A stretch of DNA of 64,000 nucleotides from Escherichia coli (GTDB lineage Bacteria; Pseudomonadota; Gammaproteobacteria; Enterobacterales; Enterobacteriaceae). Within the stretch, counting starts at the first letter, position 1; every line of letters starts with the position of its first letter. The translations under genes were made by a program, and so were the position numbers. The stretch lies in the NCBI RefSeq assembly GCF_003334315.1, contig NZ_QOWR01000015.1; one strand, given 5' to 3'. The notes under the pieces were generated by a model, which was not told the DNA's origin, ran no database searches, and saw nothing but the letters and a program-made list of their open reading frames with translations. Shown here in pieces: positions 6,372 to 6,421 of the stretch.

Positions 6372-6421
6372 ATGACAGATGCCCTCTTCCCGCAGGGAAG
6401 AGGGTTAAATAAGGAAAGAAG

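Follow-up and report, generated by a model that had tools for sequence, protein, structure and literature searches.

The genes ygfK, ssnA, ygfM and xdhD encode the first steps of the reductive (anaerobic) degradation of urate in gut bacteria, a pathway that was recently described and is under engineering for urate lowering (PMC12507026). YgfK plus SsnA, and XdhD-YgfM, constitute two separate enzyme modules of this pathway (2025 paper, PMC12507026). The four genes are co-oriented in the order ygfK-ssnA-ygfM-xdhD; only 2 nt lie between ygfK and ssnA, and ygfM runs 4 nt into xdhD, so that the 50-nt gap between ssnA and ygfM is the sole untranslated stretch of the operon and, given the two modules, marks the boundary between them. 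No internal promoter was called near ygfM by a promoter scan. A first-pass annotation of the Escherichia coli DNA studied here (64,000 nt, hereafter the window) had placed a perfect 9-bp stem-loop in this gap and had considered it an mRNA processing or stability element, or a translational modulator of ygfM, in preference to a terminator. The material consisted of ygfM loci from one genome per species, the contexts of SsnA homologues, E. coli strain variants and a pattern scan of metagenomes. Window positions are converted to those of the E. coli K-12-type chromosome (NC_000913.3) by adding 3014118.

The segment 6382-6404 reads CCCTCTTCC-cgcag-GGAAGAGGG, as annotated, and the helix proved to be longer than the 9 bp claimed for it. 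Ten perfect Watson-Crick pairs join 6382-6391 with 6395-6404, the innermost being C6391-G6395, which leaves a GCA triloop, and an outer wobble pair G6381·U6405 extends the helix to 6381-6391/6395-6405. The hairpin alone was calculated to fold at about −19.7 kcal/mol. It is separated by 10 nt (to position 6382) from the ssnA stop codon (TAA, 6369-6371) and by 16-17 nt from the ygfM ATG at 6422, the 17 nt (6405-6421) being counted from the 9-bp stem. The absence of a T-tract was borne out, since the tail 3′ of the stem is TTAAATAAGG and a consensus terminator scan made no call at the hairpin. The features of the junction are listed in Table 1, together with the stems found in the different genera.

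Table 1. Features of the ssnA-ygfM junction in window coordinates, and stems of the junction hairpin by genus (5′ arm/3′ arm).
Feature	Position	Strand	Sequence or description	Basis
ssnA coding sequence	5043..6371	+	aminohydrolase of the reductive urate pathway	RefSeq annotation of identical K-12 sequence; ORF list
Spacer, ssnA stop to hairpin base	6372..6380	+	9 nt (6-9 nt in all genera)	
5′ arm	6381..6391	+	GCCCTCTTCCC; pyrimidine-rich, CCUC anti-Shine-Dalgarno-like core	
Loop	6392..6394	+	GCA; 3-5 nt, freely variable among strains and genera	
3′ arm	6395..6405	+	GGGAAGAGGGT; purine-rich, Shine-Dalgarno-like, always base-paired	
ygfM translation initiation region	6406..6421	+	single-stranded: TAAAT, SD AAGGA (6411-6415), 6-nt spacer	
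ygfM coding sequence	6422..7201	+	FAD subunit of the XdhD-YgfM urate reductase	annotation; function PMC12507026
Escherichia stem			CCCUCUUCC/GGAAGAGGG	
Citrobacter stem			CCCUCUCCU/AGGAGAGGG	
Klebsiella stem			CCCUCUUUC/GAAAGGGGG; one U·G pair	
Atlantibacter stem			CGCCUCCCG/CGGGAGGCG	
Trabulsiella and Yokenella stem			CCUCCCCGC/GCGGGGAGG	
Pluralibacter stem			UUCUCCCCC/GGGGGAGAA	
Metagenomic-lineage stem			GCCGCUCUG/CGGGGGCGGC; two U·G pairs	

Perfect stems with a 3-8 nt loop were counted over the whole window and compared with shuffled windows. Nine stems of at least 9 bp were found (1.35 expected) and five of at least 10 bp (0.375 expected by chance), the other long perfect stems being mostly gene-end terminators, with one REP element and one 6S RNA helix. 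A single stem of 9-10 bp in 64 kb is near expectation, and the existence of the hairpin is thus by itself weak evidence and not significant. What lifts it above chance is its place in a 50-nt gap inside an operon and the fact that it has been conserved through compensatory changes. Taken alone, this gap folds at −20.2 kcal/mol versus a mean of −6.9 kcal/mol for its shuffles (z −5.4), none of 100 shuffles being as stable, and the 81-nt context around the hairpin gave a folding z of −3.1.

A helix of 9-12 bp was found at the same place in Escherichia, Citrobacter, Klebsiella, Atlantibacter, Trabulsiella, Pluralibacter, Yokenella and one metagenomic lineage. One dominant hairpin was present per ssnA-ygfM junction, reaching 14 bp in Edwardsiella, in all cases except Klebsiella indica, in which the ssnA-ygfM arrangement is kept and the hairpin is weak (z −1.0). 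The geometry is conserved as well, the hairpin starting 6-9 nt after the stop codon and ending 15-20 nt before the ATG.

Alignment of the raw gaps with MAFFT/RNAalifold was unsuitable because the low-complexity arms fall out of register, and a hairpin-anchored alignment (Python) and a covariance-model alignment were used instead. In the hairpin-anchored alignment of 18 junctions nine stem haplotypes were distinguished, standard pairs occupied 161 of the 162 core cells, and changes on both sides were seen at all nine core pairs. This alignment is fitted to the structure, and slid controls were still about 62% paired, since a pyrimidine arm opposite a purine arm pairs often anyway. The covariance-model alignment showed only 82% pairing owing to a partial misregister in genera with 5-nt loops, and it exceeded all 500 column shuffles, in percent paired and in covariation score, as well as every slid control. 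The ssnA-ygfM hairpin is real and is kept by compensatory substitutions, which agrees with the earlier view of it as a functional RNA element.

Some individual loci deserve separate mention. 'Citrobacter freundii' M-21 (L011) has a junction and hairpin of the Atlantibacter type (CGCCUCCCG/CGGGAGGCG), unlike the other Citrobacter loci, and either the record is probably misnamed or the locus was transferred. In Trabulsiella odontotermitis strain 01 (L017, 2960-3010) a deletion fuses the 3′ region of the hairpin to about codon 3 of ygfM, removing the Shine-Dalgarno (SD) sequence and the start codon, so that either ygfM is inactivated or the assembly is in error. On a 7.7-kb contig of Flavobacterium paronense CECT 8460 (L019) the 126 nt read upstream of ygfM match K-12 exactly, while the protein match is only 56%; it looks like a contig of uncorrected long-read E. 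coli contamination in the Flavobacterium assembly. A predicted protein of 618 aa from a Logan assembly (P0004) combines the Amidohydro_1 (SsnA) and FAD_binding_5 (YgfM) domains, and is probably a frameshift or assembly artefact across the gap and not a true fusion.

Within E. coli the K-12-type gap was found in about 3,980 of 5,178 genomes. A second type, CCCCUCUUCU-uucag-AGAAGAGGGG, was present in four sampled genomes (L025-L027 and L042). The first three of these differ from K-12 at 11 of the 50 gap positions and at 12-15 of 551 flanking positions, and EcN (L042) has 10 gap differences; the divergence between the two alleles amounts to 22% in the gap versus 2.2% in the flanking 551 nt. The helix is nevertheless kept between the alleles by two double substitutions, in which 6381/6405 changes from G·U to C-G and 6390/6396 from C-G to U-A. 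The remaining strain variants affect the loop, the spacer or the outer wobble pair, and the 1-nt deletion of O157:H7 has the sole effect of moving the inner pair into the loop. In the Nissle-type strain EcN_Sk the SsnA and YgfM proteins encoded on either side of the second allele do not differ from the K-12 ones, which points to recombination of a small patch or to a local hotspot of mutation.

A gap about ten times more divergent than its flanks is hotspot-like, and nearly all pairs are of the Watson-Crick type (only two G·U in 162 core cells), as would be expected of a DNA-level quasi-palindrome devoid of RNA function, the arms of which are kept by template-switch mutagenesis ('quasipalindrome correction') and not by selection. 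The divergence between the alleles, however, also hits the spacer and the linker, beyond the arms, and the metagenomic lineage and Klebsiella contain U·G pairs, which are mismatches in DNA. A self-maintaining palindrome should, moreover, be indifferent to its neighbours, whereas the hairpin is specific to the ssnA-ygfM junction and has decayed in Kluyvera (see below). On balance we consider this explanation very unlikely.

An open reading frame of 17 codons, MTDALFPQGRGLNKERR, spans positions 6372-6425 (+) of the gap. Its ATG abuts the ssnA TAA (UAAAUG) and its TGA (6423-6425) overlaps the ygfM ATG (ATGA). It is intact in most Escherichia. A function for this mini-ORF was not retained, and it is probably a chance feature, because the second allele has ATA in place of its ATG, O157 does not keep its frame and other genera lack it.

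As the arms are complementary on both strands, the polarity of the hairpin by itself says little about the strand on which it acts. Owing to the G·U pairs, the + strand RNA exceeds the − strand RNA in stability by 4-8 kcal/mol in four lineages, with a difference of about 3 kcal/mol in the opposite direction in two lineages. Taken with the location of both neighbouring genes on the + strand, this bias makes the structure most simply a feature of the mRNA. Pyrimidines make up 78-100% of the 5′ arm in the Enterobacteriaceae, the 3′ arm being correspondingly purine-rich and SD-like. This arm polarity may merely have been inherited from a single ancestral hairpin by way of C-G / U·G / U-A transitions, the pairs never being flipped. 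When G·U pairs were allowed, hairpins with a pyrimidine arm and a purine arm were in no clear excess in the window (about 6 versus 3.25 expected), and the only ones comparable in arm type to that of ssnA-ygfM are those of gcvH-gcvP.

With regard to termination, the hairpin resembles an intrinsic terminator in being a G+C-rich hairpin a few nt past a stop codon, at a site comparable to that which holds a true terminator where ssnA ends the operon. It differs in having no U-tract and in being followed, 17 nt downstream, by the next gene on the same strand and in the same operon. A U-tract, taken as at least 4-5 U in about 8 nt directly 3′ of the stem, was found after the hairpin in none of the Enterobacteriaceae junctions examined, the tails being UUAAAUAAGG in K-12 and GAAAUUAAGG in the second allele. 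In six lineages (Intestinirhabdus, Kluyvera intermedia, K. huaxiensis, Cedecea, Klebsiella michiganensis and Lelliottia) ssnA closes its operon and the genes beyond it are convergent, and in all six a canonical U-tract intrinsic terminator is found after ssnA. The same gene thus receives U-tract terminators when it is operon-terminal and lacks the U-tract at the Enterobacteriaceae junctions with ygfM, which upholds the original opinion that the hairpin is not a terminator.

A weak or conditional terminator, or a pause site, attenuating the transcription of ygfM-xdhD, perhaps as the decayed terminator of once-separate ygfK-ssnA and ygfM-xdhD operons, has still to be weighed. The terminators at a similar place in the ssnA-terminal operons and the two U residues right after the K-12 stem are compatible with such an origin. 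So is the junction of the more distant Edwardsiella, the only one with UUUU, where AAA precedes the hairpin and UUUU follows it, giving it the look of a genuine, if possibly leaky, terminator; this form suggests that the hairpin may descend from a terminator or can become one. Against it, the second allele has GA where K-12 has the two proximal U residues, no Enterobacteriaceae junction has a U-tract and the consensus scan is silent. Likewise, no RNA 3′ ends of ssnA or ygfM were found in the Term-seq supplements searched (Adams 2021; TERMITe), in which the operon is poorly expressed. Attenuation at this site is accordingly judged unlikely.

The genus Kluyvera offers a natural rearrangement of the junction. 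Here ygfM-xdhD lies behind xdhABC and is preceded by a remnant of about 70 nt of the 3′ end of ssnA. The deletion spans the ssnA stop codon and the 5′ arm, and the leftover stem is of 5-6 bp with a loop of 11-13 nt. From this decay it follows that the strong hairpin belongs with the ssnA-ygfM junction and not with ygfM alone. In three of the Kluyvera loci (L007, L008 and L010, approximately 2860-3000) a non-coding stretch of about 530 nt, ending in the ssnA remnant, was observed before ygfM-xdhD. An intact ygfK-ssnA pair with its own terminator is located elsewhere (L032 and L038), recording a split or a rearrangement of the operon.

Several known classes of element were considered for the hairpin and rejected. 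An Rfam E-value scan of 5800-7000 returned only a chance-level match to mir-320 (18.7 bits versus a gathering score of 55.5), and a scan of the whole window at the gathering level gave no family at the hairpin. A REP/BIME repeat was discarded, as blastn with a 60-nt query gave one site per genome across 3979 E. coli genomes; when the window and 32 loci were searched with a covariance model, only orthologous junctions and no further copies were recovered, and no repeat feature is annotated at the hairpin in MG1655. The malE-malF REP stabiliser, reportedly described by Newbury et al. in 1987, is similar in being an intercistronic, non-terminating stem-loop, the REP shielding the upstream cistron from 3′ exonucleases, and dissimilar in that REP elements occur in hundreds of copies with a consensus, the ssnA-ygfM hairpin being single-copy in each E. 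coli genome. A SECIS element or a stimulator of read-through or frameshifting was also rejected: the ssnA stop codon is TAA, TAG or TGA depending on the genus, there is no conserved downstream frame, and the in-frame extension past the stop is unconserved and broken by the O157 1-nt deletion.

Elsewhere in the window, the other perfect hairpins of 9-11 bp, at 14376-14399 (ghxQ/ygfS), 30994-31021 (bglA/ygfF), 36927-36952 (yqfI/ubiI), 53192-53215 (after yggE) and 54795-54820 (after mscS), lie at gene ends, where terminators ordinarily sit, so that among the perfect hairpins of this size that of ssnA-ygfM alone occupies an operon gap. A perfect 11-bp hairpin at 49020-49048 (+), CGGTAACGCCC-tgcgact-GGGCGTTACCG, lies within the argK coding sequence; it is the sole long perfect hairpin of the window inside a protein-coding gene and a candidate internal protective structure. 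The Rfam matches at gathering level, all on the + strand, correspond to known features: 6S RNA ssrS (41863-42046), the SibC antitoxin RNA (42695-42845), the REP-derived naRNA4 (28276-28353), beside the REP hairpin at 28184-28212, and ES036 (55919-55961).

A hairpin that sequesters the SD of ygfM was rejected as well. Like the SD-sequestering hairpins of RNA thermometers, riboswitch platforms and translational coupling, the ssnA-ygfM hairpin has an anti-SD-like CCUC arm and an SD-like GAGG arm near a start codon; unlike in those, the SD that functions is not its paired purine arm. This SD (AAGGA, or GAGG in other genera) lies 6-7 nt before the ATG and outside the helix in every genus, and in E. 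coli the SD (6411-6415) and the ATG (6422) are unpaired in both the MFE and the centroid structures. Partition-function folding of the wild-type and of arm-swapped or arm-scrambled sequences gave a probability of being unpaired of 0.74 for the SD with the hairpin and 0.83 without it.

Two other ways of acting on ygfM translation were considered, namely a papBA-type hairpin protecting the 5′ terminus of a processed ygfM-xdhD mRNA, and an insulator of the ribosome-binding site that would keep it from pairing with ssnA sequence, block the sliding of post-termination ribosomes and allow an independent initiation at ygfM. The anatomy of the hairpin is also compatible with either of them: in every genus the hairpin ends 4-7 nt upstream of the SD, with 15-20 nt from stem to ATG, and it sits between two translationally coupled pairs, ygfK/ssnA and ygfM/xdhD. 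When the 3′ arm alone was destroyed in silico, the pyrimidine arm paired with the SD and its accessibility fell from 0.74 to 0.60. The papBA-type mechanism is documented in E. coli (Dar & Sorek 2018), and such hairpins are likewise intercistronic and just upstream of the ribosome-binding site of the downstream gene. They need, however, cleavage by RNase E immediately 5′ of the hairpin and stabilise the downstream gene, whereas neither an RNase E site nor a 5′ end is on record at the ssnA-ygfM gap and the strong hairpin is lost without ssnA, as in Kluyvera, in which ygfM comes first on a transcript of its own after the ssnA remnant. The SD and the AUG are, furthermore, predicted to be mostly unpaired with or without the helix. 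A role of this kind is regarded as rather unlikely.

The footprint of the ribosome on mRNA is known and allows the helix to be placed relative to the entry channel. On this basis a ribosome that terminates at the ssnA stop codon would have the helix at, or just past, its mRNA entry channel, and, with the hairpin beginning 6-9 nt past the stop, such a ribosome need not melt it. A contrary scheme, in which the hairpin is a cis mimic of an anti-SD:SD duplex and a translational relay between the two enzyme modules, was also drawn up. Ribosomes ending ssnA, or re-initiating on the 17-codon mini-ORF of Escherichia, would melt the helix, exposing an extra SD-like purine tract and coupling the translation of ygfM-xdhD to that of ssnA. 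If this were true, the persistent asymmetry of pyrimidine and purine arms would be functional and not inherited; we hold the scheme to be a very improbable speculation.

A further possibility considered was a site for a sequence-specific factor, either CsrA, contacting the stem-top CAGGGA and the SD AAGGA, or a DNA-binding regulator recognising the inverted repeat. The CsrA consensus is CARGGA, and K-12 has CAGGGA at 6393-6398 and, 16 nt farther downstream, another GGA within the SD. A GGA is, however, expected by chance in any G/A-rich arm; that of the hairpin is base-paired, and it is missing from the stem top of the second allele and from the Edwardsiella and metagenomic hairpins. In the CsrA CLIP and ribosome-profiling tables xdhD is unbound and unchanged, and ygfM and ssnA are not among the entries listed. 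The arm sequences, moreover, differ between genera, which speaks against any sequence-specific protein. Such recognition is extremely improbable.

Indirect evidence leans towards a stability element over a translational modulator, on the grounds that the SD and the start codon lie outside the helix, that their predicted accessibility is barely changed by it, that the strong hairpin is lost without the upstream ssnA, and that an experimentally documented analogue exists at gcvH-gcvP. We tentatively propose, as a plausible reading that falls somewhat short of probable, that the hairpin is a read-through structure acting as a barrier to 3′ exonucleases for the ygfK-ssnA segment, both the barrier action and the differential decay of the two segments being deduced. 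The hairpin would be transcribed, its RNA structure being under selection at the border of two translationally coupled gene pairs. Because no U-tract follows, RNA polymerase would read through and ygfM-xdhD would be co-transcribed. An endonuclease would then cut the downstream message, and 3′-to-5′ exonucleases (PNPase, RNase II) would stall at the helix of about −20 kcal/mol. The stall would leave a stable ygfK-ssnA segment and set the ratio of the mRNAs of the two modules. The hairpin would in effect be a terminator hairpin minus the termination.

Operon-internal protective structures were first described at malE-malF and were generalised by Dar & Sorek 2018 (PMC5927463). At gcvH-gcvP the upstream gene is stabilised, and an intergenic hairpin of −15.7 kcal/mol, likewise U-less, bears a 3′ end mapped by Term-seq (PMC5927463, tables S3 and S6); Salmonella has a different hairpin at the same place (PMC5927463). 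The gcvH-gcvP gap is contained in the window (34924-35041, minus strand, 118 nt) and was found to fold into three U-less hairpins, two of which pair a pyrimidine arm on the 5′ side with an SD-like purine arm on the 3′ side (UUCCUCUUC-ugcg-GGAGAGGAG and CUCUCUUC-guaa-GGAGAGAG). The two junctions are alike in having a stable U-less hairpin between operon segments (−15.7 versus about −20 kcal/mol), conserved in position among enterobacteria and free in sequence. They differ in that at gcvH-gcvP a Term-seq 3′ end was measured, together with a greater abundance and a longer half-life of the upstream message, whereas the ssnA-ygfM hairpin is known from sequence alone.

The ssnA-ygfM gap shares with the operon-internal protective class a stable structure at a segment boundary, being the sole untranslated gap of its operon and folding with the energy and z-score given above, and the presence of that structure in related species, here in seven named genera and the metagenomic lineage with nine haplotypes. 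Some observations count against the barrier. Most of the structures of Dar & Sorek 2018 (PMC5927463) lie inside the downstream coding sequence, whereas the ssnA-ygfM hairpin fills an intergenic gap, and the weak hairpin of Klebsiella indica is also contrary to it. The segregation of pyrimidines and purines between the arms falls outside what an exonuclease barrier explains. The operon is absent from the decay tables searched (Dar & Sorek 2018); this absence, and that from the Term-seq tables, is probably due to the operon being barely expressed in standard media.

As judged from its sequence and conservation, the hairpin would most likely be a new representative of the protective or insulating hairpins known as a class from the interior of operons. 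It involves no new mechanism and is a modest addition to that class. The junction provides a clean natural example of one gene end that carries either a true terminator or a U-less read-through hairpin according to whether another gene follows. The hairpin is also a plausible determinant of the mRNA ratio of the two modules of reductive urate degradation, and for that reason it matters for any refactoring or overexpression of the operon.
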